From IMG/VR virus record IMGVR_UViG_3300045988_037140, positions 11,143-75,142 of that record: 64,000 nt of DNA; one strand, written 5' to 3'. The translations under genes and the position numbers were made by a program. The notes under the pieces are model-generated. The model was not told where the DNA came from, did no database searches, and saw only the letters and a list, made by a program, of their open reading frames with translations. Below, one piece after another: positions 1,233 through 43,191 of the stretch (position 1 is its first letter; every line of letters begins with the position of its first letter). The stretch is from a virus.

Positions 1233-1325
1233 AAGACACAGTACAGCAAGTTTTTTAATGGGATAATTCTTTTCTCGCCACGAAAATGATAACTGGTTCG
1301 AGTCCAGTGCAAAAACCTGTGTCTT
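1233..1325 (+). ncRNA. AAGAC-clamped tRNA-like ncRNA module A
   Basis: A 9-bp terminal clamp aagacacag/ctgtgtctt encloses a D-region (tacagcaa...), a hairpin ttttc-tcgccac-gaaaa, a T-arm actgg-ttcgagt-ccagt and an A/U acceptor-like pairing (tttttt/aaaaa). No CCA. It lies immediately after a promoter. Confidence 0.35.
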
Positions 1326-1334
1326 GCTGAATAT

Positions 1335-1425
1335 TGCCCCGTGGTGTAATGGTTAGCACGGCGGTCTCTAAAACCGTATCCCTCTGAAGGAGTAAGTCTG
1401 GGTTCGAACCCCAGCGGGGCTGCCA
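1335..1425 (+). tRNA. amber-suppressor tRNA (anticodon CUA, reads UAG), type II-like with Gln-like determinants
   Basis: Anticodon stem gcggt/accgt with a 7-nt loop ctCTAaa (U33, A37). T-arm ctggg-ttcgaac-cccag; acceptor tgccccg/cggggct with a U1-U72 mismatch; discriminator G73; CCA. The variable arm is 20 nt (ctct-gaa-ggag hairpin); D-arm gtgt-aatggtta-gcac. Confidence 0.7.
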
Positions 1426-2495: not shown

Positions 2496-2517
2496 TAGGC
2501 ATAAAGCCATTATGGGT

Positions 2518-2634
2518 AAGACGCACACAGCAAATTTTTTCTTTTGAAAAATATTTTAGCTCATTGGTAGAGCATCAAACTGTTAATTTGACTGTAGCTG
2601 GTTCAAATCCGGCAAATAATTTTCTTTGCGTCTT
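2518..2634 (+). ncRNA. AAGAC-clamped module F enclosing an AT-rich tRNA-like (Asn GTT-like) element
   Basis: Clamp aagacgca/tgcgtctt with an acagcaaa box just after the 5' strand. It encloses the cloverleaf at 2550-2621. Confidence 0.4.
2550..2621 (+). tRNA. tRNA-like Asn (GTT) with an all-A/U acceptor stem (A2-A71 mismatch), no CCA
   Basis: D-arm gctc-attggta-gagc; anticodon stem tcaaa/tttga; loop ctGTTaa; T-arm gctgg-ttcaaat-ccggc; acceptor aatattt/aaataat. Confidence 0.45.
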
Positions 2635-2743
2635 GTAAAATTAAATAAGGAGGTTATTTTCTATGTTCCAAGACATTGATGACATGATCTTTGCTGATGT
2701 AGAACCCACGATTAGTGAGAAGTAAACATCATGTCCTTTATAT

Positions 2744-4116: not shown

Positions 4117-4462
4117 GGGGGTATAAAGGTTTCGACGGGGCATTGAGAAGTTAGAACACACGGGTAGGCGACCTCCTTACGGCGCAACAAACAATTAACT
4201 GACAACAATTATTTTGATTCTCACATGGCAGCTTGAGCTTTTGCTCGCTGACCATTAACTGTATACCTCTGGTTTCTTTGTTTTCCTTCTAAAAATAAAG
4301 TGGTGGATGCGTTGTACTTATAACCGGTACGGCCCTATAGTTTAGTTAGTTTGTTCTTGACTTGTGGCTCTATTCAAAAGCTATAAATAAGGACTATCGT
4401 GTAAGAATGTTCTGATTAAGTAGATGTTTCGGACACGGGTTCGACTCCCGTTACCTCCACCA
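4117..4462 (+). ncRNA. ssrA: tmRNA (SsrA), phage-encoded
   Basis: 5' end gggggtataaaggtttcgacgggg and 3' end tttcggacacgggttcgactcccgttacctccacca match the canonical tmRNA ends (GGGG...GGUUUCGACGGGG ... UUCGGACGCGGGUUCAACUCCCG...CUCCACCA). The acceptor gggggta/tacctcc pairs. Candidate tag ORF: ...DNNYFDSHMAA followed by TGA. Confidence 0.75.
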
Positions 4463-5947: not shown

Positions 5948-6100
5948 ATGTTATATAAAGACCTATACAGCAAATCTTTCTTTACTAATAGAAGAAGATA
6001 TAATGATTAGCAAGTCATTGCTGCCAGACGTCGAGATAGCTCTTTAGAACGAAGACAGGCGAGAGCTATGGAGTCATAAGTCTAAGTTTTCGTGGGTCTT
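5948..6100 (+). ncRNA. AAGAC-clamped ncRNA module E (no obvious T-arm)
   Basis: 5' aagacctatacagcaaa shares the acagcaa box with modules A, D and F. The 3' end gggtctt pairs with the 5' end. The interior has stems but no TPsiC-like loop. Confidence 0.25.
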
Positions 6101-14766: not shown

Positions 14767-14901
14767 AAGACCTTAACAGCAATAAAAATGGACTGTAAAT
14801 CCGTCGCTTATGCTACGCAGGTTCGAATCCTGCCCTCCCCACCACTATATGGCGGAGGTAGGGAAGTGGTTAAACCCAACGGAACCGAAAAGAAAAGGTC
14901 T
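14767..14901 (+). ncRNA. AAGAC-clamped ncRNA module C with a circularly permuted tRNA(Tyr-like) domain, immediately upstream of the Ro60-like vWA gene
   Basis: Clamp aagacctt/aaggtct. Interior order: anticodon-like loop ctGTAaa + tccgt; variable arm; T-arm gcagg-ttcgaat-cctgc; acceptor 3' strand cctcccc; A-CCA; loop ctatat; acceptor 5' strand gcggagg; U8-A9; D-arm ggg-aagtggttaaa-ccc; then acgga, which pairs back to tccgt. Confidence 0.45.
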
Positions 14902-14958
14902 AGAATTTAATCTCCCTTGTCCAAGGGAGTAACTAAAAATCAAAAGGAGATTGATACG

Positions 14959-16449
14959 ATGAATACTTTTATGAACGCTATGAAGCAAGATACCAACTTT
15001 ACCTTGACTGAGAATGGCGCAGTTACCCATAAGTCCACTCTGAATGGTCTTATGGATTTGTTCGCGCTCGGCGGAGCATACCGCACTCGTTCTGATGCAG
15101 ATTGTATCACTTTGTTCAAGGCGGCCTTTGACGAGGATGAAGCTCATGCTTTAAAGTGCCTGTTCTATCTGCGTGATGTGCGCGGCGGCCAGGGTGAGCG
15201 TCGTTTCTTCCGCGTTGTGACCAACTGGCTTGCTTCTCACGAGACTGAAGCCATGCGTCGTAATCTCCAGTTTGTGCCTGAGTACGGTCGCTGGGACGAC
15301 CTGTATATCTTCGTTGGCACTCCTCTGGAGAAGGACGCTTTCAATTTGATGCGCCATCAGCTGGCTTTGGATGTCTCTTGCAAGACTCCTTCTCTGCTCG
15401 CTAAGTGGCTGAAGTCTGAGAATACCAGCTCTAAGGAATCTCGCCATCTGGCGGTGATTACTCGCAATCATTTTGGCATGACCGCAAAACAGTACCGCAA
15501 GACTCTCTCTACTCTGCGTGAGCGTATCCGCATCGTTGAGCGCCTCATGTCTGAGAATCGGTGGGACGAGATTGAGTTTGACAAGATTCCTTCTCGTGCC
15601 GGCGTAATTTATCGCAATGCGTTTGCTCGCCGCGATATGATTAAGGCTAAGTATGAGGCTTTCGCTAAGGATACTGAGACTAAGGTTAATGCCAGTGCTC
15701 TCTATCCTCACGACATTGCACATCGTGCCTTTGAAGCCAATCGTAAGGGATTGGGCGATCCTGATCGTCTGATGCTTCAGAAGTATTGGGAGAACCTTCC
15801 TAACTACTACGGTGATAATATCGAGAATGGCATTGCTGTTGTCGATGTTTCTGGCTCTATGACCGGTGTTCCTATGGAGGCTGCGGTCTCTATGGGTGCG
15901 TATATCGCAGATAAGGCGCACGGTCCTTTTGCCAACCACTTCATTACCTTCTCTGGTCATCCTGAGCTGGTGAAGTTCGAGGGGGCAGACATTACCGATA
16001 AGTTGTGCCGTTGCATTGGTGCAGATTGGGGTATGAACACTAATATCGAAGCTGTCTTCGATATGCTGCTCAACACCGCGATGAAGCAAAGTGTAAAGCC
16101 TGAGGATATGCCTACTCGCGTCTACATCTTCTCTGATATGGAGTTTGACAAGTGTGTTACCAGTAACTCTACTGATCGGGGTGGCTGGGGGTATGGTATG
16201 CACAGCGATGCCATCCAGACTCTCTTTGAGGCTATGAAGGCTAAGTGGGCACGCTACGGTTACAAGATGCCTAGCTGCATCTTCTGGAACCTGAACGCCC
16301 GCAATAACAACATTCCCGCAATCGGTGACGGCTTTAGCTATGTAAGTGGTTTTAGCCCTGTTATGATTCAGCAGATTCTCAGCGGCAAGGACGGACTCGA
16401 TCTGATTCTTGAGAAGCTGGACAGCGAGCGTTATGCTCAGATTCACTAA
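14959..16449 (+). CDS. vWA-domain protein with Ro60/TROVE-like architecture (helical N-terminal part + C-terminal vWA MIDAS DVSGSM)
   Basis: ATG 14959 after aaaaggaga. MIDAS motif IAVVDVSGSMTG, later FSGHP and FSDMEFD. The N-terminal ~300 aa look helical. The following genes are an AAA+ MoxR ATPase and an unknown protein. Confidence 0.5.
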   Translation: MNTFMNAMKQDTNFTLTENGAVTHKSTLNGLMDLFALGGAYRTRSDADCITLFKAAFDEDEAHALKCLFYLRDVRGGQGERRFFRVVTNWLASHETEAMRRNLQFVPEYGRWDDLYIFVGTPLEKDAFNLMRHQLALDVSCKTPSLLAKWLKSENTSSKESRHLAVITRNHFGMTAKQYRKTLSTLRERIRIVERLMSENRWDEIEFDKIPSRAGVIYRNAFARRDMIKAKYEAFAKDTETKVNASALYPHDIAHRAFEANRKGLGDPDRLMLQKYWENLPNYYGDNIENGIAVVDVSGSMTGVPMEAAVSMGAYIADKAHGPFANHFITFSGHPELVKFEGADITDKLCRCIGADWGMNTNIEAVFDMLLNTAMKQSVKPEDMPTRVYIFSDMEFDKCVTSNSTDRGGWGYGMHSDAIQTLFEAMKAKWARYGYKMPSCIFWNLNARNNNIPAIGDGFSYVSGFSPVMIQQILSGKDGLDLILEKLDSERYAQIH

Positions 16450-16454
16450 ACCCT

Positions 16455-16500
16455 CTCAAACGGGGAAATGGCAAGAAAATTGCCATTTCCCCGTCTTTTC
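16455..16500 (+). terminator. rho-independent terminator
   Basis: ggggaaatggcaa-gaaaa-ttgccatttcccc followed by gtcttttc. Confidence 0.5.
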
Positions 16501-16521
16501 TATTTATTGAAAAATAATTTA

Positions 16522-16560
16522 ATTTATGATATAATAAATATATAAGGTAAGGAAAGGAAG
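16522..16560 (+). promoter_or_regulatory. phage consensus promoter + leader
   Basis: tttatgatataataaatatataaggtaaggaaaggaag. Confidence 0.45.
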
Positions 16561-16568
16561 TTACATAG

Positions 16569-17465
16569 ATGCTATATCCATATCCAGCTGGAATGCCATT
16601 CCCAAGTTTGTTTACGTCTTCATTTGAACCGCCAGCGCAATCTGCTTCTGATTATTCTCTATATCGAGAAGATTTTGGTAGCATTTACAGTTTACTGAAT
16701 ACTATCAATAACCGTGAAAACAATAGCTTCATGCGTAACGAAGATTCGTCTCAGGAACGTGGAAATGAAGAGTGGAGTGGTACATCTTCTTATGAAGAAG
16801 CTCAATCTCTCTTGATTCATGGCTATGAAGATCCGGTTAAAAATATCAAGAGCAGCTTAGCTAAAAATAAGAAACTGACAAGTAAAATCTACAATTCAAT
16901 TCCTAAGCCCATAGTCCAAAATAGAGTGGTAGGATTTGTTCCAAATGTACCCAATGCTCTTAAAGGACTGCCGGAATCTATGATTACACTGGAAAAACTC
17001 CATAAGAAGAGAAAGACCATCTCTATTATCTATGCTACAGGCGGTAGCTGTGGCGTAGAAAGTGATGTTCTGGCATCTGCGGGTGCGGCGCTTGTATCCG
17101 CCATCAACCTCATTGAGTTGTCCGGTGTGCAAACTGAATTGTCGGTTGGTTTTATGCCTACGAAAGAAACTAAGCAGATTATTTTTCCAACTGTGAAGAT
17201 TAAAGGCTATGGCGAACGCTTTAACTTGCAGAAAATCTGCTTTCCGATGATTCATCCTGCGATGTTTAGACGAATTGGTTTTAAGTACCTTGAAACTTGT
17301 CCTGGTATGGTAGAAAATTTTTCTCATGGGTATGGCCGTCCGCCTGAGCTTGAAGTTTTGAAGACTCTTATCAAGGATAAAAATACCTATGTGATTAACC
17401 GTGCGTGGATTACTGAACATGAAAATGATATTGAAGAAATTCTTAAATATATGGAGGTCTGCTGA
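16569..17465 (+). CDS. hypothetical protein (partner of the vWA / MoxR pair)
   Basis: 298 aa; no motif recognised; lies between the vWA and MoxR genes in the same transcription unit. Confidence 0.4.
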   Translation: MLYPYPAGMPFPSLFTSSFEPPAQSASDYSLYREDFGSIYSLLNTINNRENNSFMRNEDSSQERGNEEWSGTSSYEEAQSLLIHGYEDPVKNIKSSLAKNKKLTSKIYNSIPKPIVQNRVVGFVPNVPNALKGLPESMITLEKLHKKRKTISIIYATGGSCGVESDVLASAGAALVSAINLIELSGVQTELSVGFMPTKETKQIIFPTVKIKGYGERFNLQKICFPMIHPAMFRRIGFKYLETCPGMVENFSHGYGRPPELEVLKTLIKDKNTYVINRAWITEHENDIEEILKYMEVC

Positions 17466-17466
17466 T

Positions 17467-18426
17467 ATGAATAGAGATAAGATGCTCGAAGCGATGATGA
17501 AGGCGGTGACTGATGCGGTCGTCGACGTGAATGTGGAAGAAATTCTGGCGAAAGTGTATCCTCAGATTGATGAGAAAATTCACGAGACTTATGGTTTCCT
17601 GCCGGAGGTTCATGAAGTGCGGACGCCGACTGCAACCCATAAGATCTGTGGCACTACGCATGAGAAGTTTGACGAGGTTCTCAATATTGTCAATCTGGAT
17701 ATCCCCGTTTATCTGACTGGCAAAGCGGGCACCGGCAAGAACGTCATTTGTCAGCAGGTTGCGGAAGCTCTGGGTCTGGATTTTTACTTCACCAACGCCG
17801 TTACGCAGGAGTACAAGCTGACTGGCTTCATTGATGCCAACGGTAATTATCAGGAAACCCAGTTTTATAAAGCTTTTACGAAGGGTGGTCTGTTCTTCTT
17901 GGACGAGATGGACGCATCTATCCCTGAGACTCTGATTATTTTGAACGCGGCCATCGCGAATAGATACTTCGATTTCCCCAACGGCAAAGTTAGTGCGAAC
18001 CCTAACTTTAGAGTCATCGCTGCTGGTAATACGGTTGGTACCGGTGCAGATAATAACTACACTGGTCGCTATTGCTTGGATAGAGCAAGTCTTGACCGTT
18101 TTGCTATGGTGAATATCGACTACTCTGAAAAGATTGAGATGGCTATGGCAGATAATAACAAGAATCTGGTATCTTTCTGCCATCGTTTCAGAGAGATTAC
18201 CGATAAGGCTGGCATCGAGTGTCTGTTCTCCTATCGTACTATTGATAGAATTGCGAAACTCGAAACGGTAATCAGCAATCTGTCCGAGGTTCTGTCTATC
18301 TCGCTGCTTAAGGGCATGGACGAGGATACCTTGTCTATTCTTAAGAACGAATTGTCTGAAGCTAAGGATATGACAAATAACAAGTATGCGAAAGCTATTA
18401 TCAATGGTAATAGCTGGGATTTTTAA
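17467..18426 (+). CDS. MoxR-like AAA+ ATPase (AAA_5: GKAGTGKN, FLDEMDA)
   Basis: ATG 17467 after ggaggt. Walker A LTGKAGTGKNVI, Walker B LFFLDEMD, sensor AAGNTVG. Confidence 0.65.
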   Translation: MNRDKMLEAMMKAVTDAVVDVNVEEILAKVYPQIDEKIHETYGFLPEVHEVRTPTATHKICGTTHEKFDEVLNIVNLDIPVYLTGKAGTGKNVICQQVAEALGLDFYFTNAVTQEYKLTGFIDANGNYQETQFYKAFTKGGLFFLDEMDASIPETLIILNAAIANRYFDFPNGKVSANPNFRVIAAGNTVGTGADNNYTGRYCLDRASLDRFAMVNIDYSEKIEMAMADNNKNLVSFCHRFREITDKAGIECLFSYRTIDRIAKLETVISNLSEVLSISLLKGMDEDTLSILKNELSEAKDMTNNKYAKAIINGNSWDF

Positions 18427-19333: not shown

Positions 19334-19645
19334 ATGAAACTGTGGATTGATGATCTGCGGCCGGCTCCGAGCGAATATATCTGGGTTAAAAGTGTAAAAG
19401 CCGCTAAAACTGCGATCTGGCAGTATGAACATAACATGATAGATGATAATATCTTGATTGACCTTGACCATGATGCTGGTGACTATGCGTCTGAAGGTGG
19501 GGACTATATTAAGTTACTCGATTGGCTAGAAGCTAAAAACATTGTAGACACAGGATATAGCTTTCATCTCCATAGTATGAATCCTGTCGGCGTTCAGAAT
19601 ATGAGAGCAATCATTGAGAAGAATGGATGGGAGGAAATTAGATAA
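19334..19645 (+). CDS. hypothetical protein
   Basis: 103 aa; RBS gaaggta. Confidence 0.4.
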   Translation: MKLWIDDLRPAPSEYIWVKSVKAAKTAIWQYEHNMIDDNILIDLDHDAGDYASEGGDYIKLLDWLEAKNIVDTGYSFHLHSMNPVGVQNMRAIIEKNGWEEIR

Positions 19646-19821
19646 TGGTCAAAACTTGGGTACAATTATATGACAGATTGGGACGACAACCATTATCTAA
19701 AACGAAAGAATCCCGTATCGTCCTCAAGAATGAGGATGGAACTTTCACACCTTTAATGCTTGTATTTGATAGCAACGGAGCAAATTGGTGGCTTGAGAAA
19801 AGAAAGGAAGGAAAAGATTAA
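19645..19821 (+). CDS. hypothetical small protein
   Basis: taATG overlap coupling; 58 aa; not in the ORF track (<60 aa). Confidence 0.3.
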   Translation: MVKTWVQLYDRLGRQPLSKTKESRIVLKNEDGTFTPLMLVFDSNGANWWLEKRKEGKD

Positions 19822-20052
19822 ATGGGTAAGTTTTCAGAACTCGATCTAAAATGGTATGAAGAGGAAGATTTGGAAGACCTCGAAGCCGAATATCCGGGTC
19901 TTTTCGATAAATCAAGAGAAGAACTAGACAAGTTTGCAACCCAGCTATACTGGAAAGCGCAGAATCTAATCGAGGAAGCAAATAGCCTTGAGAGTAAGGC
20001 TGATGTTATTCGAACCTATCTGGGTGCGACAGAAAGAGAGGAAGTGTTGTAA
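19822..20052 (+). CDS. hypothetical acidic protein
   Basis: 76 aa. Confidence 0.35.
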   Translation: MGKFSELDLKWYEEEDLEDLEAEYPGLFDKSREELDKFATQLYWKAQNLIEEANSLESKADVIRTYLGATEREEVL

Positions 20053-20054
20053 TA

Positions 20055-20357
20055 ATGGGAAAAATTACTCGTCATAGCAAAGAGCGCATTGTTCAGAGGA
20101 CTGAGGGATGTGAGAGTTTCGCAGAAGCTAAGAAGTTAGCTAAGCAAGCTAAGCGATCTGGTGCAACTATAAATCAGTTTCAGAAGTTCCCTAAGTTCTT
20201 CTCGTATCTTCAGAACAAGAGAAACCAGACTAATACCTGTTCTATTAGAGTTTATCGAGGCAACATTTATATCTGGCGTGGCAAAGATACATTGATTACC
20301 GCGCATCCTATCCCCGAAAGATATATTAAAGAAATGGAGGCTATTGGCGATGACTGA
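20055..20357 (+). CDS. hypothetical protein
   Basis: 100 aa. Confidence 0.35.
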   Translation: MGKITRHSKERIVQRTEGCESFAEAKKLAKQAKRSGATINQFQKFPKFFSYLQNKRNQTNTCSIRVYRGNIYIWRGKDTLITAHPIPERYIKEMEAIGDD

Positions 20358-21147
20358 TGTTATGAGTAGAGTCCATGACCATCTCGATGAAAGTTTGCAG
20401 AGGTTTGACGAATCAAGAATCGTCGGTATCTTCTTGCAAGGCTCTCAGAACTATGGTCTTGAAACTCCTAAGAGCGATGTTGATACGAAGCTGATTGTTA
20501 CTCCTACTTTTGATGAAGTGGTTCTTAACAAGAAGCCTATCAGCACCACTCATGTAAGAGCAAACAACGAGCATACCGATCTGAAGGATATTCGATTGAT
20601 GCTCGCCACCTTCCGCAAACAGAATCTCAACTTCATTGAAATTCTCTTTACCCCTTATGCTTGGGTAAACCCTCTTTTTGAAAGTGAATGGGGTCGTCTG
20701 ACTGCGGCGCGCGAGCAGATTGCTCACTACTCTCCATATGGCGCAGTTAAGACCATGAAGGGTATCGCTATGGAGAAATATCATGCTATGGAGCATGAAT
20801 ATCCTAGCAAATTGGAAGTACTAGCCGAGTATGGCTACGATCCAAAACAGCTCCATCATCTCCTGCGGGTTCAGGAGTATATCCATAGATACATCAGCGG
20901 TGAATCCTATGAAGCGTGCCTGCATCCTAAGCGTCCTGAGTTTCTTGTAGCTGTTAAACAGGGGTATTTTAACCTTGAGCAGGCCCGCACTTCCGCGGAT
21001 GCGGCTATTGCTGACGTAATTGAAACTGCGGACGCCTTCTGTGAAAAAGTTGGTAAGACTTTCGATACCGCAGTTGATGAACTGCTTGATGATGTGCAGT
21101 ATAATATCGTAAAAAGTGCATTGAAAGGAGAGATTCTAAGTGATTAA
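20344..21147 (+). CDS. pol-beta-superfamily nucleotidyltransferase (GS-x12-DVD motif)
   Basis: GIFLQGSQNYGLETPKSDVDTKLIVTP is the classic minimal NTase signature. A helical C-terminal domain follows. Confidence 0.5.
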   Translation: MAMTDVMSRVHDHLDESLQRFDESRIVGIFLQGSQNYGLETPKSDVDTKLIVTPTFDEVVLNKKPISTTHVRANNEHTDLKDIRLMLATFRKQNLNFIEILFTPYAWVNPLFESEWGRLTAAREQIAHYSPYGAVKTMKGIAMEKYHAMEHEYPSKLEVLAEYGYDPKQLHHLLRVQEYIHRYISGESYEACLHPKRPEFLVAVKQGYFNLEQARTSADAAIADVIETADAFCEKVGKTFDTAVDELLDDVQYNIVKSALKGEILSD

Positions 21148-21934
21148 GAACTGGCTCGTTACAGGAGATACTCATGGTCAAGTCCTTGAGAGACTTAGTC
21201 ACATTGGGTACCCTCCTGATGAAACTGCGTTGATTATCCTTGGTGATATGGGTCTTAATTTCTATCTAAATAAGACCGACCAGAAGAACAAGAGGAATGT
21301 CAATGCAACCGGATTCCGCATTTATGCAGTTCGTGGCAACCATGAAGAGCGTCCAGAAAACCTTTTCATGGAGCAGATGTATGACGAAGATATTGATGGC
21401 GGAGTATATTATGAGCCAGAGTTTCCGAATATCAGATACCTCTTTGATGGAGAGAGTTATAACATTCATGGCTACTCTGTCCTTGTTATCGGCGGAGCGT
21501 ATTCCGTAGATAAGTGGTATCGACTTAGAGATCGTCCAGAAGATACAGATAGTTGGACTGGCTGGTTCAAGGATGAACAGCTAACCAAAAAGGAAATGGA
21601 TGAAATTGGCGCATGGGTTGAGGGTAAGCGTTATGATTTTGTCCTAACCCATACTTGTCCCATTTCTTGGGAGCCAAGAGATTTGTTTCTCTCTGGTCTT
21701 GACCAATCCAAAGTAGATAAAAGTATGGAACTTTGGCTTGAGGATATCAAGAGTAAAGTTGATTGGGAGGTATGGCTCTGCGGCCACTACCATGACGATC
21801 GGTTAATCCGGCCCGGCGCAGAAATGTACTTCCACGACATTGAATCTCTTGATACAATTTGGGAGCGTTGGCAAGATCCTGAGAGCCTTGACTGGTGGTT
21901 GAAGAAGGATCCAAACTACTATATGGGTAGATAA
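21140..21934 (+). CDS. metallophosphoesterase (calcineurin-like: GDTHG, GDMG, GNHE)
   Basis: Motifs I-III of the MPE fold. Confidence 0.65.
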   Translation: MIKNWLVTGDTHGQVLERLSHIGYPPDETALIILGDMGLNFYLNKTDQKNKRNVNATGFRIYAVRGNHEERPENLFMEQMYDEDIDGGVYYEPEFPNIRYLFDGESYNIHGYSVLVIGGAYSVDKWYRLRDRPEDTDSWTGWFKDEQLTKKEMDEIGAWVEGKRYDFVLTHTCPISWEPRDLFLSGLDQSKVDKSMELWLEDIKSKVDWEVWLCGHYHDDRLIRPGAEMYFHDIESLDTIWERWQDPESLDWWLKKDPNYYMGR

Positions 21935-21942
21935 AAAAATAA

Positions 21943-21975
21943 AGGGTCGAAGTATTTAATACTTCGACCCTTTTA
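21943..21975. terminator. bidirectional terminator
   Basis: aaagggtcgaagtat-ttaa-atacttcgaccctttt; lies between convergent + and - genes. Confidence 0.6.
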
Positions 21976-21976
21976 A

Positions 21977-22234
21977 TTAAAAGTCATGCCACTCAAGTTT
22001 CTGCGGACTTCCAGTTCCGCCGATCTTTTGATAGCCATTTGCTGTGGTATATTGCAAGATGGCATCTTCTACAAAGTAGATCTTGCCTTCTTCACCAACT
22101 TCAGGAAGCTCAGAACGCTGTGTTACTTCAATGCTTCCACCATTTTTAATCTGTTCCTTAACCCATTCTTTGAGTTTTGTATCATAGTGAGATAAAAGGT
22201 TAAGGTCAATAAGGTTTTCTAATGCGACTGCCAT
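21977..22234 (-). CDS. hypothetical protein (minus-strand island)
   Basis: 85 aa; RBS aaggag on the minus strand; one of only two convincing minus-strand genes. Confidence 0.45.
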   Translation of the reverse strand: MAVALENLIDLNLLSHYDTKLKEWVKEQIKNGGSIEVTQRSELPEVGEEGKIYFVEDAILQYTTANGYQKIGGTGSPQKLEWHDF

Positions 22235-22247
22235 TAGGAATCACTCC

Positions 22248-22517
22248 TTAACCAAATAGTTTATCAATGTCTGCAATGTCGGCTAAGCTGCCTTCAACGA
22301 CAACTGTCCCACCGCCTCCGCCGCCACTTGACTTTTGTTTAATCCATTGACCCTGGTTGTTCAATCTATAAGTGCTAGAAGTTGCGACAACCTCGCAAGT
22401 GCTGCCAGGGGTAAAGTGGGTAGGAAGGGTGGCAATTTCGTCTTCGGTATCAACTAGTAGACGAACTAGATAGGGAGTGATTTTCTCCCCACTCATCATC
22501 TGAGAATACATAGACAA
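22248..22517 (-). CDS. hypothetical protein with a Gly6 run (minus-strand island)
   Basis: 89 aa; RBS aaagggg. Confidence 0.4.
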   Translation of the reverse strand: MSMYSQMMSGEKITPYLVRLLVDTEDEIATLPTHFTPGSTCEVVATSSTYRLNNQGQWIKQKSSGGGGGGTVVVEGSLADIADIDKLFG

Positions 22518-22607
22518 TCTGCCCCTTTCATTATTTTCTCTATTGTTATCTAAAAAATGATAATGAGTGTATATCAGCTTTTGGCCAAAATAAATACCTA
22601 TTTGAAA

Positions 22608-22656
22608 AATGTTATAAAATATATTATAATATATATAGAAAGTTAAGGAAGAAAGA
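22608..22656 (+). promoter_or_regulatory. phage consensus promoter + leader
   Basis: tgttataaaatatattataatatatatagaaagttaaggaag. Confidence 0.45.
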
Positions 22657-22657
22657 A

Positions 22658-23062
22658 GTGATAACCATTCGTATCTGGCATCAAAAACTTATTCCCTATC
22701 TTGACCGTCAGCGTCTCTTAGGTCAGCATCGAGAATGTGCGGCTCTGAGAGGAAAAGGCTGGGGCAAGAAACACGCAACTGTAGACTATGCTTTTACACA
22801 TGACCCTGCCTTGCTTGTCGCTTATCATTATCTGATTATGGACGAGATGGAGAAGCGTGGTTACCATCCAGATAAGATTTGGAAGAATCCGAACTGGCGA
22901 GGAAGTACATTGGGCGAAGATACATGGATTTCTGATTCTAAGTATGAAGAGATTTATGAATCTGCCAAGCAGGGTAATATGATTTATCCTGAACATGATG
23001 ATGCTTATTTGCAGGAGTGTATCAATATCCTGCACGAAAAAGGTATCGACATTACGATGTAA
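22658..23062 (+). CDS. pyrimidine-dimer DNA glycosylase (T4 endonuclease V / DenV-like)
   Basis: GTG start. IRIWHQKLIPYLDRQRLLGQHRECAAL...AYHYLIMDEMEKRGY parallels T4 DenV [20 protein letters not shown]. Confidence 0.5.
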   Translation: MITIRIWHQKLIPYLDRQRLLGQHRECAALRGKGWGKKHATVDYAFTHDPALLVAYHYLIMDEMEKRGYHPDKIWKNPNWRGSTLGEDTWISDSKYEEIYESAKQGNMIYPEHDDAYLQECINILHEKGIDITM

Positions 23063-23081
23063 CAAGAGAGGAGATAGCTAT

Positions 23082-23252
23082 ATGATGCCCTATGTTTGTG
23101 ATGGAACTATCGTAAGAGTGAGAGACGGCCGCACCGGTAAAGTCATCTGCGTTGATAGAAACACCAAGATTGCAGTAGTCTATACTGGTAAGGCATCTAT
23201 CTCTACAAAGATTGAAAATCTTGAGGTCATTTCCTACAAGGAGGTTCAGTAA
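23082..23252 (+). CDS. hypothetical small protein
   Basis: RBS gaggag; 57 aa. Confidence 0.35.
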   Translation: MMPYVCDGTIVRVRDGRTGKVICVDRNTKIAVVYTGKASISTKIENLEVISYKEVQ

Positions 23253-23253
23253 A

Positions 23254-23547
23254 ATGCCCGGAAGAGTAAGAGTTCATCGACCCTCTCCAGAAAAAGAGGG
23301 AGAGTATAAGATGCGTATTCTTAGCATCTTAAATGAGTCTGAGGAAGCTATGACGATTGATGAAATCAAGAGTCAGGATATGATTCTCCAGCCATTAACA
23401 TCTCAAAAGATGGCAAGACTTATCGGCAATCTGATTGAAATGGGACTTGTGCGGAAGGGCAAGTCTAAGAGCCTCGGACGCATGGTTTATAAGGCTGTAG
23501 CAGTCATGATTAGTCAAGGCTATGACGTGAATGAAGAGGAGGAGTAA
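23254..23547 (+). CDS. winged-helix-like small protein
   Basis: RBS aaggagg; 97 aa. Confidence 0.35.
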   Translation: MPGRVRVHRPSPEKEGEYKMRILSILNESEEAMTIDEIKSQDMILQPLTSQKMARLIGNLIEMGLVRKGKSKSLGRMVYKAVAVMISQGYDVNEEEE

Positions 23548-23550
23548 GAT

Positions 23551-33430: not shown

Positions 33431-33664
33431 GTGGTTTTATTGGTAAATATTTTAATTGGAGTTCTCCTTATCACAGTAGGTGCCACCTTACTCAATAGTA
33501 TTAGTGAAATTATAAGTGCTATTACAGAACTTATTAAAGCTAATATAAATGAAAGGATTGTTCGTCACAATGTTACGATTAATAAACTTAGTGAAGGAGA
33601 AACTCAATCTAGTGCAATCGGATTTGCCACTACATACGAAGAGGAAGATGAACATGAACTATGA
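33431..33664 (+). CDS. small membrane protein
   Basis: GTG start; 77 aa. Confidence 0.3.
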   Translation: MVLLVNILIGVLLITVGATLLNSISEIISAITELIKANINERIVRHNVTINKLSEGETQSSAIGFATTYEEEDEHEL

Positions 33665-34922
33665 TGTACGGTTTCCAACAGATAGATACTTCTACGATAC
33701 TTGCTCCCTTTTGTTGGCCGGAGAAAGTCTATTTGAGCAGGACAAGAAGCCCTTCTTAGTTTCCTCAATTACATTAAAAGAATTAGAGAGAATTAAGACG
33801 GCTTCAAATAAGGATGCTGACATCAAGTATTCAGCTCGTCTATTGCTTCATTTGTTTGAAGAATATCCAGATAAGTATGAAGTAATCCCGCACAAAGTAG
33901 ACAATGAGTCCGTAATTAAAGAAGCGGGTTTCGATGTTACTGATGATACTCGCATCTTGTCTGATGCCATTGCGTGCGACAAAGAAAAAGATATTGTCTT
34001 TGTAACTAACGATTTAAGTCTAAAGCATATCGCTAACTGCTTCTTTGGTAATGGAATGATTGAGAGCGTTCCAGAAGAAGTAGACGATTATACTGGTTAT
34101 ATTGAAGTTACTTATAGCGACGAAGCTCTAGCAGAGTTTTATCAGAACCCGAACGATAATTCCTTTAACCTATTACCAGGACAGTATCTTATCCTGAAAA
34201 ATAGCAATGGAGAGATTGTTGATTTGCGGGTTTGGACAGGCGAAGAGTTCAGATACCTTTCTTCTAAGACCATTAACTCTAAGTGGTTTGGTAAGATTTC
34301 TCCATACTCTGGAGATATTTATCAGAAGATGCTATTTGATAGTTTGCGTAATAACAAGCTAACTCTTGTTAAAGGTCCAGCTGGTAGCGGTAAGACTTTC
34401 GTTTCTCTGGCTTACTTAATGGCAAAAATGGAAGCCCATGAACTAGATAAAATTATTATCTTCTGCAATACTGTTGCTACTGCTAACTCTGCTCGTCTCG
34501 GATATTATCCGGGAACAAAAGATGAAAAGCTACTTGACTCTCAGATTGGTAACTTACTAAGTAGTAAGTTTGGTGGTCGAGAGGAAGTTGAGAGACTGAT
34601 CGCAGAAGGTAAATTAGTTTTACTACCATTCTCTGATATTCGTGGTTATGATACTTCTGGTATGAACGCAGGTATCTATATTTCTGAAGCTCAGAACCTT
34701 GACCGCACACTAATGAAACTCGCTCTACAGCGTGTTGGTGAAGATTGTATTTGTATTATTGATGGTGATGAAAAAACTCAAGTTGATGACATTCACTTCT
34801 CTGGTGCAAATAACGGTATGCGGAGGGTATCAAAAGTATTCAGAGGTAAGAATATTTATGGAGAGGTAACTCTTAAGAATATCTATCGTAGTGAGATTGC
34901 GTCTATCGCTGATAAAATTTAA
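33648..34922 (+). CDS. PIN-domain + PhoH-like ATPase (PhoH2-type, GPAGSGKT)
   Basis: ATG 33648. N-terminal PIN-like acidic residues; Walker A LVKGPAGSGKTFV; PhoH core. Confidence 0.6.
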   Translation: MNMNYDVRFPTDRYFYDTCSLLLAGESLFEQDKKPFLVSSITLKELERIKTASNKDADIKYSARLLLHLFEEYPDKYEVIPHKVDNESVIKEAGFDVTDDTRILSDAIACDKEKDIVFVTNDLSLKHIANCFFGNGMIESVPEEVDDYTGYIEVTYSDEALAEFYQNPNDNSFNLLPGQYLILKNSNGEIVDLRVWTGEEFRYLSSKTINSKWFGKISPYSGDIYQKMLFDSLRNNKLTLVKGPAGSGKTFVSLAYLMAKMEAHELDKIIIFCNTVATANSARLGYYPGTKDEKLLDSQIGNLLSSKFGGREEVERLIAEGKLVLLPFSDIRGYDTSGMNAGIYISEAQNLDRTLMKLALQRVGEDCICIIDGDEKTQVDDIHFSGANNGMRRVSKVFRGKNIYGEVTLKNIYRSEIASIADKI

Positions 34923-41979: not shown

Positions 41980-43191
41980 ATGAGTTTTGATAAAAGTAAG
42001 ATACATGAGTTGTATCCTGAAGCAGAAAACTTAATGATTGAGCCAATGCTTATTTGGAAGTTGCCTGCGGGAAAGGAATCTATGCTCTCTGAAGTATGTT
42101 CTAATGGGGAATATTTCCTTGAGGAGAAAATTGATGGAGCATTTTATCAGTTTGTAAAAACTGAAAACCATTCTTATCTTTTTGGTCGCACAGTAAGTAA
42201 ACTATCTGGTATCCTTACAGAAAAAAGTGACAATGTACCTCACTTAAAAGAGGCATTGAACTGTCTTCCCGCAGGAACAATTCTCATTGGAGAAATTTAT
42301 GTTCCCGGTGGTACATCGAAAGATACTGTAAGTATTATGGGATGTTTACCTGCTCTTGCTATCAAGAGACAAGAGAAGGAACCAATCCATTATTATGTGC
42401 ATGATATTATTGCATATGATACAGTCAATCTTATTGACTCACCTGCGGATTTGCGCTATAAAATTCTTGCGGCAATCTGGAAGAAACATGATCTCAACCA
42501 GTATAGTTTCTTAAGACTTGCCACTCGCGTCGATGAAGATATGGAGGCTGAAATCTCTCGTATCTTAAAATCTGGCGGCGAAGGCGCGGTCTTAAAGAAG
42601 AAAGATTATCCATATACTCCCGGTAAAAGACCTGCATGGTCTACAATCAAAGTTAAACAGATGGATTCTATTGATTTAATTTGCACTGGATTTTGTGATG
42701 CTACAAAGGAGTATACCGGTAAAGAGTTGGCCTCTTGGGAATATTGGGAAGAGACAGAACCCTCATTCTATGATTGCTTTGAGGAAGATCATTGCTTTGG
42801 CGGATGGTGTAATCCTCGCTTGGTTGAGGGTAATCTATATGCGAAGTATCTCAATAATCCTCCAGTTAATGGTTTTAGCTGGTTGGATGAAACGGATAGA
42901 TTTTATACTCCTGTAACTAAACCTTATTTTCTTGGCTGGAAAACCGCAATTAGGATTGGTGCGTACAATGATAAGGGTGAACTTGTTGACTTAGGTACAG
43001 TTAGCTCTGGATTAACTGATGATAACAAAAGAGAAATGACTGAGAATCCCGATTTGTGGCTTGGTCATGTTGTAGCTCTTGATTGTATGCAAATTGATAA
43101 GAAAGAGCATACTTTGCGACATCCTGTCTTCAAGTGTAAAAGAGACGACAAGGATGCAAAAGATTGCGTAATATCAGAAATTTTTTGTTGA
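41980..43191 (+). CDS. ATP-dependent DNA ligase (motif I EEKIDGAF)
   Basis: KxDG adenylation motif plus downstream ligase motifs (ILIGEIYV..., GEGAVLKK). Confidence 0.65.
   Translation: MSFDKSKIHELYPEAENLMIEPMLIWKLPAGKESMLSEVCSNGEYFLEEKIDGAFYQFVKTENHSYLFGRTVSKLSGILTEKSDNVPHLKEALNCLPAGTILIGEIYVPGGTSKDTVSIMGCLPALAIKRQEKEPIHYYVHDIIAYDTVNLIDSPADLRYKILAAIWKKHDLNQYSFLRLATRVDEDMEAEISRILKSGGEGAVLKKKDYPYTPGKRPAWSTIKVKQMDSIDLICTGFCDATKEYTGKELASWEYWEETEPSFYDCFEEDHCFGGWCNPRLVEGNLYAKYLNNPPVNGFSWLDETDRFYTPVTKPYFLGWKTAIRIGAYNDKGELVDLGTVSSGLTDDNKREMTENPDLWLGHVVALDCMQIDKKEHTLRHPVFKCKRDDKDAKDCVISEIFC

Follow-up and report, generated by a model that had tools for sequence, protein, structure and literature searches.

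Permuted tRNA-Tyr-like and other ACAGCAA-framed RNAs as candidate Y-RNA-like partners of the Ro60-like DUF2828 proteins of phages

Does a tRNA that is written in the wrong order in a phage genome serve as a tRNA, is it the leftover of one, or is it the RNA partner of the protein encoded beside it? The question is raised by a 64,000-nucleotide stretch of gut-phage DNA (IMG/VR record IMGVR_UViG_3300045988_037140, positions 11,143 to 75,142; hereafter the window), in which a circularly permuted RNA resembling tRNA-Tyr lies between a tRNA array and the gene for a protein with DUF2828 and vWA domains. Ro60-Y RNA particles occur in animals, in some bacteria and in a few phages that have true TROVE proteins, and a Ro-type protein with a Y-like RNA is an already known kind of system. 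What is new here is the protein family, the RNA motif, the occurrence of multiple RNAs with modular cargo, and a complete permuted tRNA with its CCA as one such cargo. The reading that we favour, as probable though by no means certain, is that the RNA is a stable, structured non-coding RNA (ncRNA), composed of a frame and a permuted-tRNA cargo, and that it acts as a Y-RNA-like subunit of a DUF2828 particle in tRNA repair or anti-defence.

The window RNA (Table 1) is bounded by two strands that pair as a closing helix, and between them the parts of a class II tRNA-Tyr follow one another in permuted order, from the former anticodon loop through the variable arm, the T arm, an acceptor closed by a loop and the D arm to a second copy of tRNA positions 27–31. 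An earlier note on this DNA had described the module, and every element that it listed is found in its place, except that the loop closing the acceptor has seven nucleotides (CUAUAUG) and not six. The complete cloverleaf that it proposed also holds in that all stems are present and covary, and in that joining ACGGA in silico to CUGUAAA yields an 84-nt sequence called tRNA-Tyr(gta) by ARAGORN; it falls short in the acceptor, where six of seven pairs form and a C:C mismatch occupies tRNA position 2:71 (window positions 14839 and 14853), the sole flaw of the re-joined tRNA. Re-joined RNAs of three lineages are all called tRNA-Tyr(gta) by the same program, at 84–86 nt. The permuted gene itself was detected neither by ARAGORN nor by Rfam at gathering and E-value thresholds, and weak Rfam matches to tmRNA_permuted, a plastid untranslated region and CRISPR-DR53 were set aside, as they merely reflect the T arm/CCA or a downstream hairpin.

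Copies of this RNA were sought with nhmmer, with a covariance model (R1, which gives the window RNA 168.8 bits) and with a pattern scan. The resulting alignment holds 28 copies, 23 of them distinct, from IMG/VR contigs of 44–201 kb and from two contigs of metagenome-assembled genomes (MAGs). Among the distinct copies, 94.5% of pair cells are standard, ten pairs are altered on both sides, the covariation score was reached by none of 500 shuffles, and sliding the partners by 1–3 columns lowers pairing to 34–56%. Compensatory changes occur in all five helices. The long-range anticodon stem is 100% paired with three of its five pairs altered on both sides (UCCGU/ACGGA becomes UCCAC/GUGGA or CCCGU/ACGGG, by lineage), and the same figures apply to the T stem; the D stem is also 100% paired, its middle pair being altered on both sides (G-C/C-G), and the frame helix, as we call the closing helix, is 90.5% paired with one pair, C-G/U-A, altered on both sides. 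The two MAG contigs, labelled Clostridium sp., are the only contigs of the genome collection with the permuted RNA; most matches of the genome-contig scan were tandem tRNA pairs in Saccharibacteria MAGs (R1 34–42 bits) and were discarded as false positives.

The minimum-free-energy fold of the RNA contains a local anticodon hairpin, AUGGA/UCCGU, in place of the long-range stem; in energy the two conformers are practically equal (-37.5 vs -37.2 kcal/mol). In the alignment this hairpin has no both-side changes and three broken cells, and is broken in two lineages, whereas the long-range stem has changed on both sides; therefore the long-range permuted closure is, on comparative grounds, the selected fold and is preferred to the local hairpin. 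The RNA may nevertheless switch between the two conformers. Another pairing of the minimum-free-energy fold, AGCA of the 5' region with UGCU of the variable arm, was rejected because UGCU is changed to UGGU in the lineage of contig L082 (contig handles of this kind are ours) and the change is uncompensated.

Of the unpaired parts, ACAGCAA, which directly follows the 5' strand of the frame helix, is invariant in 23 of 23 distinct copies, and GUAAA is invariant in the former anticodon loop; position 33 is U or A by lineage (A in L027-type and L082-type copies), and ACCA (ATCA in one copy), the T loop and the D loop are near-invariant. The 2:71 mismatch (C:C, C:U or U:C) is found in 19 of the 23 distinct copies, with G-C in four, including the L082 lineage. 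Among the mismatched copies, changes on either side never restore the pair (alignment columns 77/91), and the mismatch could be a selected anti-determinant.

The frame, that is, the outer part of this RNA, turned out not to be peculiar to it. Other RNAs with a frame were first reached through weaker R1 matches that shared just the outer part, and they define it as a closing helix of 6–10 bp, variable and covarying, followed after 0–2 nt by an unpaired [A/G]CAGCAA, together with an A-rich 3' side. The window has seven frames. Every one of them lies within the tRNA array, the other 49 kb having none, and helices of the AAGAC.../...GUCUU type close the six RNAs besides 14768–14901 (Table 1). One of the six encloses a complete tRNA-Asn, so the frame can bracket a working tRNA and not just fragments. 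Another, the type-2 RNA (R1 37 bits; Rfam YrlA, RF02553, 24.4 bits over the full model), forms with 11 others a subclass that we call T-AS-D after its T arm, closed acceptor-like stem-loop, UA or UG, and D arm. Across 80 related loci, 135 frames lie on the gene strand vs 15 on the opposite strand, 126 of them upstream of the DUF2828 gene vs 9 downstream, and at least 59 of 73 loci have at least one frame upstream. A T arm or anticodon-like hairpin is present in about 40% of 139 distinct frames; a census of the anticodon-like hairpins gave no clear preference beyond the GUA of the type-1 copies (those of the permuted kind) and was not used. No family in Rfam 15 covers the ACAGCAA frames, and in the papers open to search on DUF2828, on permuted tRNA in phages and on Ro-like proteins no description of these RNAs was found. 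They make up an undescribed RNA family, and its place beside a Ro60-like protein gene in phages of at least seven widely different bacterial hosts suggests a widespread phage RNA-protein particle.

Does the frame accompany the DUF2828 gene in phages that are only distantly related? The surroundings of the gene were taken from ten GenBank phages (126 kb) whose DUF2828 proteins are 30–42% identical to that of the window, and the frames named here are all on the gene strand. Mycobacterium phage Faith1 has three, at 41991–42040, 42052–42173 and 42186–42247 of its record and one of them T-AS-D, in the 369-nt gap after gene 55; Bacillus phage 2S-4 has four, the last about 25 nt before the gene (read by eye); Fusobacterium phage Fnu1 has one, ending 38 nt before the gene; and Salmonella phage Felix O1 has four in the tRNA stretch after gp42, which is its DUF2828 protein. 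Upstream frames number three within 340 nt in Listeria phage AG20, two within 175 nt in Campylobacter phage F360 and two within 620 nt in Enterococcus phage Porthos. Ralstonia phage RSP15 has one about 940 nt downstream, Staphylococcus phage Alsa_3 has two after the gene with the variant ACAGCYAA (ACAGCCAA / ACAGCUAA), and the frame of Vibrio phage nt-1 is doubtful. ACAGCAA itself thus stands in the frames of eight distant phages, with its variant in the Staphylococcus phage. Over the ten loci, 24 frames are on the gene strand vs 1 on the opposite strand, whereas block-shuffled sequence has 1.4 on average and 4 at most; for the heptamer the counts are 33 vs 5, with 7.5 expected. No ACAGCAA frames were found in the stretches examined of the T4 and T5 tRNA clusters and of the region of the TROVE-type phage McGee; to our knowledge, DUF2828 is absent from T4 and T5.

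The frames track the DUF2828 gene across distant phages, and therefore what had been proposed from a single locus, a Y-RNA-like ligand of a Ro60-like protein, now appears as a conserved gene-RNA pairing, supported by covariation and by the same-strand frames beside DUF2828 genes. This pairing is the main new result, and from the genomic coupling we infer that the DUF2828 protein binds the frame RNAs.

Database annotations of these regions deserve a remark. What follows the DUF2828 gene in records of the Felix O1 type goes under various labels ('tRNA-Pseudo-GTA', 'tRNA-OTHER' or 'putative tRNA pseudogene'), and small open reading frames for a 'hypothetical protein' have been called over frame or Y-RNA regions, e.g., McGee genes 231 and 232 over a YrlA match. 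Such pseudo-tRNA and small-gene annotations over frames are likely to be misannotated ncRNAs, and the frames would explain both the unannotated gaps and the 'pseudo-tRNAs' beside DUF2828 genes.

How do these RNAs relate to known Y RNAs? Bacterial YrlA RNAs have been likened to circularly permuted tRNAs whose acceptor loops are closed, an origin from dimeric tRNAs has been proposed for them, and YrlA is located in the rtcBA repair operon (10.1101/312249); the permuted RNA looks like the near-intact intermediate that the dimeric-tRNA model predicts. In Y RNAs, the ring protein is bound at the terminal stem with its bulged motif, and an effector, e.g., polynucleotide phosphorylase (PNPase), is tethered through a second module (PMC4201824; PMC12135203). 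The earlier note had assigned the window RNA to the YrlA type of architecture, and this stands as far as the order of T arm, closed acceptor-like stem-loop and D arm is concerned, which covariation supports. As in YrlA, the 5' and 3' ends exit via the anticodon-stem position and pair as a terminal stem whose 5' side has a conserved motif, single-stranded or bulged, and the RNA is coded near the gene for a Ro60-type HEAT+vWA protein on the same strand, often by tRNAs and RNA-repair genes. Unlike YrlA, it has as its neighbour DUF2828 rather than a TROVE Ro60 ortholog within about 4 kb, and its motif is ACAGCAA, not the GNCGAAN0-1G of the Rsr-binding 5' strand (PMC4201824). The type-1 RNA also retains features that YrlA is without, namely the sequence of the anticodon loop, an anticodon stem of 5 bp, the long variable arm and an ACCA that is encoded, and there are many frames per genome here, most of them with no tRNA-like domain.

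Membership of YrlA in the sense of Rfam did not hold for the type-1 RNA, as RF02553 gives no match at E<=10 on 14560–14980. The YrlA model is the best Rfam match of six T-AS-D frames, at 24.4–37.9 bits, under the gathering score of 69; five of these matches are full length and that of L084 covers positions 23–88 of the model. The T-AS-D frames are the sole thing in these regions that the model picks up. The control, the McGee region by the TROVE gene, gives YrlA 36.1 bits and has GNCGAA-type motifs. A pairing of CAGCAA with sequence after the 3' strand, forced by the YrlA model, is an alignment artefact and topologically incompatible with the closing helix.

Small stable RNAs among phage tRNA genes have also long been known in T4 (species 1 and 2/rnaC and rnaD) and T5 (RNA1, RNA2, RNAI, RNAIII and others), where some are annotated as tRNA-like with a T arm and tRNA processing presumably releases them; T arms are seen in T5 RNA1 and RNA2 and in T4 rnaC. 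Unlike the RNAs of the window, they have no ACAGCAA frame (L123, T5 30284–33949; L124, T4 70908–71171). We know of no Ro-like partner for them, and they may belong to another class of phage RNAs derived from tRNAs.

The other half of the pairing is the protein. The start of the DUF2828 gene of the window lies 58 nt downstream of the permuted RNA on the same strand, and its product is assigned to PHROG 850, 'RNA-binding protein'. Its MIDAS (a metal-ion-dependent site of adhesion), VDVSGSM, is intact, with D296, S298 and S300 invariant; T361 and D393, assigned to the MIDAS by position only, are also invariant. An AlphaFold model (predicted local distance difference test, pLDDT, 74.5; predicted template-modelling score, pTM, 0.57; some low-confidence segments) has a helical-repeat N-terminal domain and a C-terminal vWA domain and is nearest to Ro60 structures, and in a Foldseek search with it the top nine matches are all Ro60/TROVE chains. 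A helical N-terminal part followed by a C-terminal vWA with MIDAS is likewise the layout of Ro60/Rsr, including the proteins of Thermus phage phiLo (PDB 9KOP/9L5Y) and mycobacteriophage cluster C1 (gp233), and like these phage members the DUF2828 proteins are phage-encoded and adjoin small structured RNAs. For one phage Ro60 of the TROVE type, binding of two stem-bulge RNAs and recruitment of PNPase have been reported (PMC12135203). Phage records with DUF2828 number 704, among them Felix O1-type phages and phages related to the Listeria, Staphylococcus, Campylobacter and mycobacterial model phages; the frames give this second and much more widespread phage family a family of candidate cognate RNAs, marked by an invariant motif of their own.

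One Ro60-like phage protein has a reported function. Gp130 of the Felix O1-like phage Bas63, which is Ro60-like and encoded directly upstream of a tRNA stretch, counters the Ppl defence, and in the same preprint some 'tRNAs' were suspected to be Y RNAs, although the RNAs were not identified there (10.1101/2024.10.10.617714). Felix O1 gp42 is also beside a phage tRNA stretch, which holds the four ACAGCAA frames, and Bas63 gp130 may be its ortholog. The frames offer candidate ligands for a protein reported to counter bacterial defence.

Several observations weigh against a Y-RNA-like particle. On the side of the protein, Pfam at E<=10 returns PF11443 and PF25043 only, and neither TROVE (PF05731) nor vWA_Ro60 (PF25045), both of which are matched by the positive control, McGee gp233; phmmer against PDB and profile sequence searches were negative; and hhalign of DUF2828 with the TROVE protein of McGee gives a probability of 11%. 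The model is only of moderate quality, and its TM-scores to Ro60, a closed ring, are 0.34–0.51. Because the TROVE sequence signal is absent and Ro60 chains come first in Foldseek, the DUF2828 protein is called Ro60-like in fold, as modelled, and not a TROVE member, and the Ro60-like vWA protein of the earlier note is kept in this restricted sense.

On the side of the RNA, the negative controls are few (T4, T5 and McGee). The earlier note had placed the type-1 RNA directly upstream of the vWA gene, and this is true of the window and its closest relatives only. It is 3 kb upstream of the gene in L027, L035 and L042, it is 40–46 kb from the gene in the L077, L079 and L080 contigs (proteins about 55% identical), and it is absent from the 4 kb upstream of the gene in L010–L012 (88–90% protein identity). 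With distances of 40–46 kb in relatives, the adjacency of the type-1 RNA to the gene is therefore lineage-specific. L008 keeps the DUF2828 gene but has lost tRNA-Cys, together with the 5' part of the RNA, by a deletion between the T arm/CCA segments of tRNA-Leu and of the RNA. In what results (L008 3818–3945, identical with L081 4300–4427), the 3' part of a normal tRNA-Leu(CAA) runs on at ACCA into the 5'-half portion of the permuted RNA; this suggests that T arm/CCA segments have recombined, or it is possibly a chimera of the assembly. Finally, there are several frames per genome, and about 60% of the 139 distinct frames have no recognisable tRNA part, so a processing or insulating role in tRNA transcripts could also fit.

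This role is the main rival explanation. Frames would then be processing, stability or insulation cassettes of polycistronic tRNA-array transcripts, with stems that host RNases cut or protect, the DUF2828 gene would be nearby only as the gene at the end of the array, and the permuted tRNA-Tyr would be a cassette with captured tRNA parts. Besides the many frames with no tRNA-like part, such a role would account for the location of all window frames inside the tRNA array, for the frame around a whole tRNA-Asn, for frames that abut tRNAs (1 nt after tRNA-Cys, 7 nt before tRNA-Gln), and for the tRNA arrays that precede the DUF2828 gene, on its own strand, in 67 of 73 loci. It would not account for Faith1 and Fnu1, in which frames flank the gene and an Rfam scan of the loci detected no tRNA, nor for Alsa_3, where none is annotated in the region, and the T4 and T5 tRNA clusters are without such frames. 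Moreover, the single-stranded heptamer is invariant across phages of Actinobacteria, Firmicutes, Fusobacteria and Proteobacteria despite their differing RNase sets, and a phage-encoded reader is therefore indicated. We place the processing cassette on the unlikely side, as an explanation with a small but real chance.

The RNA could instead act alone, as a decoy or sponge in the likeness of tRNA-Tyr that is directed against tRNA-targeting defence nucleases or tRNA-binding enzymes such as tyrosyl-tRNA synthetase (TyrRS) and modification enzymes, with DUF2828 a mere neighbour. The RNA keeps A73, G34-U35 within the invariant GUAAA, the long variable arm and the encoded CCA, and the first three of these are what we take to be the identity elements of bacterial TyrRS. 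Its tRNA body is near-invariant across phages whose DUF2828 proteins are only 55% identical, it can be as far as 40 kb or more from the gene, and the many phage tRNAs and repair genes fit a tRNA-centred arms race. On the other hand, it has the ACAGCAA frame in common with RNAs that have no tRNA part and that track the DUF2828 gene, the anticodon loop is open in the fold that covariation supports, and position 33 is not conserved. Taken together, these points make the decoy quite unlikely in our view.

It might also be thought that the locus is a true permuted tRNA-Tyr gene of the type known from Cyanidioschyzon merolae, in which the frame is excised, the phage RNA ligase circularises the product, and RNase P and 3' trimming yield a decoding tRNA-Tyr. 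As in C. merolae and some archaea, the 3' half precedes the 5' half, the re-joined sequence is a canonical tRNA (here a complete tRNA-Tyr whose CCA is encoded), the acceptor is closed by a short linker behind the CCA, the termini pair beyond the anticodon region, and a tandem duplication is the likely origin. An RNA ligase, phosphoesterases and a Thg1-like enzyme are coded 4.4–14 kb downstream, and the possibility of permuted tRNA genes has been raised in the YrlA literature (10.1101/312249). Against this, the same phage has a conventional tRNA-Tyr at 8108–8193; position 33 is A instead of U in two of three lineages; 2:71 is persistently mismatched; and the same frame surrounds RNAs that are unable to become tRNAs. 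The junction, as judged by inspection and with no dedicated search for the motif, is a 7-bp helix with 25-nt and 11-nt loops and not a bulge-helix-bulge, and we know of no splicing endonuclease in bacteria. A permuted tRNA gene is accordingly very improbable.

The anticodon arm of the conventional tRNA-Tyr is like that of the window RNA and its acceptor like that of the L042/L082-type copies, and these likenesses point to descent of the permuted RNA from it, the source being most likely a tandem tRNA-Tyr pair. That the RNA is nothing more than a decaying, functionless relic of such a duplication is hardly credible, since compensatory changes maintain every helix, the long-range one included, and the sequence, with the conserved frame and ACAGCAA, is kept in diverged phages (27 viral contigs and 2 MAG contigs). 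In favour of a relic, the layout is exactly that of a 3' tRNA part with the 5' part of a second tRNA behind it, positions 27–31 occurring twice, and L008 shows that T arm/CCA segments recombine here.

How might the preferred particle, a Y-RNA-like subunit bound by a DUF2828 protein, work? The RNA would have two modules, a protein-binding frame (a 7–10 bp closing helix of the RNA ends, single-stranded ACAGCAA and an A-rich 3' side) and a cargo, which is an entire class II tRNA-Tyr in circular permutation. It would be transcribed from the promoter predicted near 14150 together with tRNA-Leu, tRNA-Cys and the DUF2828 mRNA, be freed by tRNA-processing enzymes, and fold as an L-shaped tRNA mimic whose frame helix and ACAGCAA would bind the Ro60-like DUF2828 protein. 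By analogy with Ro60-Y RNA particles, the RNA may then gate the ring protein or tether it to tRNA-recognising enzymes or damaged tRNAs. The cargo would recruit, or compete for, tRNA-recognising factors in repair or probably in counter-defence, and the tRNA array together with the repair genes (RNA ligase, RlaP, cREC, phosphoesterases and Thg1-like) would be the context in which the particle acts.

Would the acceptor of the cargo stay closed? The YrlA of M. smegmatis has a 7-bp acceptor, is cut by RNase P and receives CCA (PMC4201824; 10.1101/312249). In the window RNA the acceptor is likewise of 7 bp, and A73 and the CCA are both encoded; it is therefore possible, by this analogy, that RNase P opens the acceptor at G1 and that trimming exposes the CCA, giving an RNA in two pieces. 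A wider proposal, which we regard as a long shot, is that the frame is a modular handle by which interchangeable tRNA-derived cargo is held on DUF2828, the opened permuted tRNA-Tyr being a two-piece, possibly tyrosine-chargeable mimic that would serve as a decoy, a sensor or a repair platform. If true, this would explain why a homolog of the Felix O1 type counters a host defence system. In a bolder version, the phage RNA ligase would re-join the RNA into a working tRNA-Tyr, and the phage would then be the first bacterial virus with a permuted tRNA gene. Several of the phages that carry frames are culturable.

Table 1. Coordinates of the RNA elements, genes and predicted signals of the window (window positions).
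Feature	Position	Strand	Basis or remark
Type-1 frame RNA: circularly permuted class II tRNA-Tyr(GUA)-like ncRNA in ACAGCAA frame	14767..14901 (frame helix from 14768)	+	sequence, ARAGORN after re-joining, covariation
Closing (frame) helix, 5' strand AGACCUU	14768..14774	+	pairs with 14895–14901
Unpaired motif ACAGCAA	14776..14782	+	directly 3' of closing-helix 5' strand; followed by A-rich spacer
AUGGA, alternative local partner of UCCGU	14788..14792	+	sequence
Former anticodon loop CUGUAAA	14793..14799	+	sequence
Anticodon-stem 3' strand UCCGU	14800..14804	+	long-range partner ACGGA 14879–14883, or local AUGGA
Variable arm, 12 nt	14805..14816	+	sequence
T arm GCAGG-UUCGAAU-CCUGC	14817..14833	+	sequence, covariation
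Closed acceptor stem-loop, 7-nt loop CUAUAUG	14834..14858	+	sequence
Acceptor 3' strand CCUCCCC	14834..14840	+	followed by A73-CCA 14841–14844
Acceptor 5' strand GCGGAGG	14852..14858	+	followed by UA
D arm GGG-AAGUGGUUAAA-CCC	14861..14877	+	sequence, covariation; single A before ACGGA
Anticodon-stem 5' strand ACGGA, second copy of tRNA positions 27–31	14879..14883	+	closes cloverleaf
Closing-helix 3' strand AAGGUCU, preceded by A-rich tail ACCGAAAAGAA	14895..14901	+	sequence
Frame RNA, T arm only	1233..1325	+	
Frame around complete tRNA-Asn (2549–2622)	2517..2635	+	
Short frame RNA, 6-bp closing helix, ACAGCAA	3503..3561	+	
Frame RNA, tRNA part not recognisable	5958..6100	+	
Frame RNA, motif variant CCAGCAA, 10-bp closing helix	6538..6694	+	
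Type-2 YrlA-like frame RNA: closing helix, ACAGCAA, hairpin, T arm, closed acceptor-like stem-loop, UA, D arm, A-rich tail	7831..7938	+	
Predicted sigma-70-type promoter TTGCAA-17-TATAAT with TG	14145..14173	+	consensus scan only
tRNA-Leu(CAA) and tRNA-Cys(GCA)	14484..14765	+	ARAGORN, Rfam
DUF2828 (PF11443) + DUF7788 (PF25043, vWA, MIDAS DxSxS) protein, 496 amino acids	14959..16449	+	Pfam
Predicted intrinsic terminator, 15-bp stem and U tract, directly after DUF2828 stop	16460..16494	+	consensus scan
Predicted new promoter	16507..16535	+	consensus scan
DUF7192	16569..17465	+	Pfam, PHROGs
AAA_5/MoxR-like ATPase	17467..18426	+	Pfam, PHROGs
RNA/tRNA-repair gene island	19334..28794	+	Pfam; pyrimidine-dimer glycosylase in between
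cREC_REC	19334..19645	+	Pfam
RlaP nucleotidyltransferase	20344..21147	+	Pfam
Metallophos, three genes	21140..21934, 25857..26600, 26594..27325	+	Pfam
RNA ligase PF09414	23551..24819	+	Pfam
Thg1-like 3'-5' polymerase	27823..28794	+	Pfam

The surroundings of the locus are consistent with expression of RNA and protein together. The predicted layout of a promoter before the two tRNAs, a terminator after the DUF2828 gene and a fresh promoter behind it suggests that tRNA-Leu, tRNA-Cys, the RNA and DUF2828 form one unit and that the AAA+ gene therefore belongs to a separate one. Since tRNA-Cys ends 1 nt before the permuted RNA, its 3' processing would define the 5' end of the RNA. The MoxR-type AAA+ ATPase, for which a role as the usual vWA partner had been suggested, was rejected as a partner: together with the DUF7192 gene it follows the DUF2828 gene only in the closest relatives, it is absent from L009 (96% protein identity), and it stands behind the terminator and the new promoter. 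The genes of the repair island are found again on the contigs with an identical DUF2828 protein, and ligase or phosphoesterase genes also neighbour the DUF2828 gene in AG20, Fnu1, Faith1 and RSP15, according to their annotation.

Between the permuted RNA and the start codon lies an 8-bp hairpin, CUCCCUUG/CAAGGGAG, at 14912–14929 (+), and it is this region that the weak CRISPR-DR53 match in Rfam reflects. Alternatively, AAUCUCC at 14908–14914 could pair with GGAGAUU over the ribosome-binding GGAG (14946–14952), and judging from the letters of this pairing a translational switch for the DUF2828 gene is possible.

As for the phage itself, GenBank megablast returned no phage that is close at the DNA level, the only matches being stretches of 40–56 nt within mycobacteriophage genes annotated 'Ro-like RNA binding protein'; metagenomic contigs of 140–150 kb carry identical copies of the window DUF2828 protein. 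The strong GGAG ribosome site and the TGnTATAAT promoters are consistent with a Firmicutes host.

The first 15 kb of the window contain 32 tRNAs and a transfer-messenger RNA (tmRNA), all on the + strand (ARAGORN; Rfam agrees). The tmRNA (4117–4462, +, 100 bits, tag DNNYFDSHMAA) lies within the tRNA array and is directly adjoined by tRNA-Arg and tRNA-Lys. A protein of 372 amino acids with nSTAND3 (PF20720) and AAA domains is also coded inside the array region, at about 8549–9667 (+) (from L112 3591–4709). Two of the tRNAs are unusual, one with the anticodon CUA (ARAGORN 'Pyl', amber suppressor type) at 1335–1425 (+) and one with an 8-nt anticodon loop (uaaa) at 8450–8523 (+), and their sequences suggest stop-codon or frameshift suppression by the phage. 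An element at 7017–7137 (+), missed by ARAGORN, matches the Rfam tRNA model in full (46.5 bits, 121 nt); it has a normal acceptor, D arm and T arm, and a CGUGU/ACACG stem that encloses about 50 nt instead of the 7-nt anticodon loop, and it could be an intron-containing tRNA or another tRNA-like RNA.

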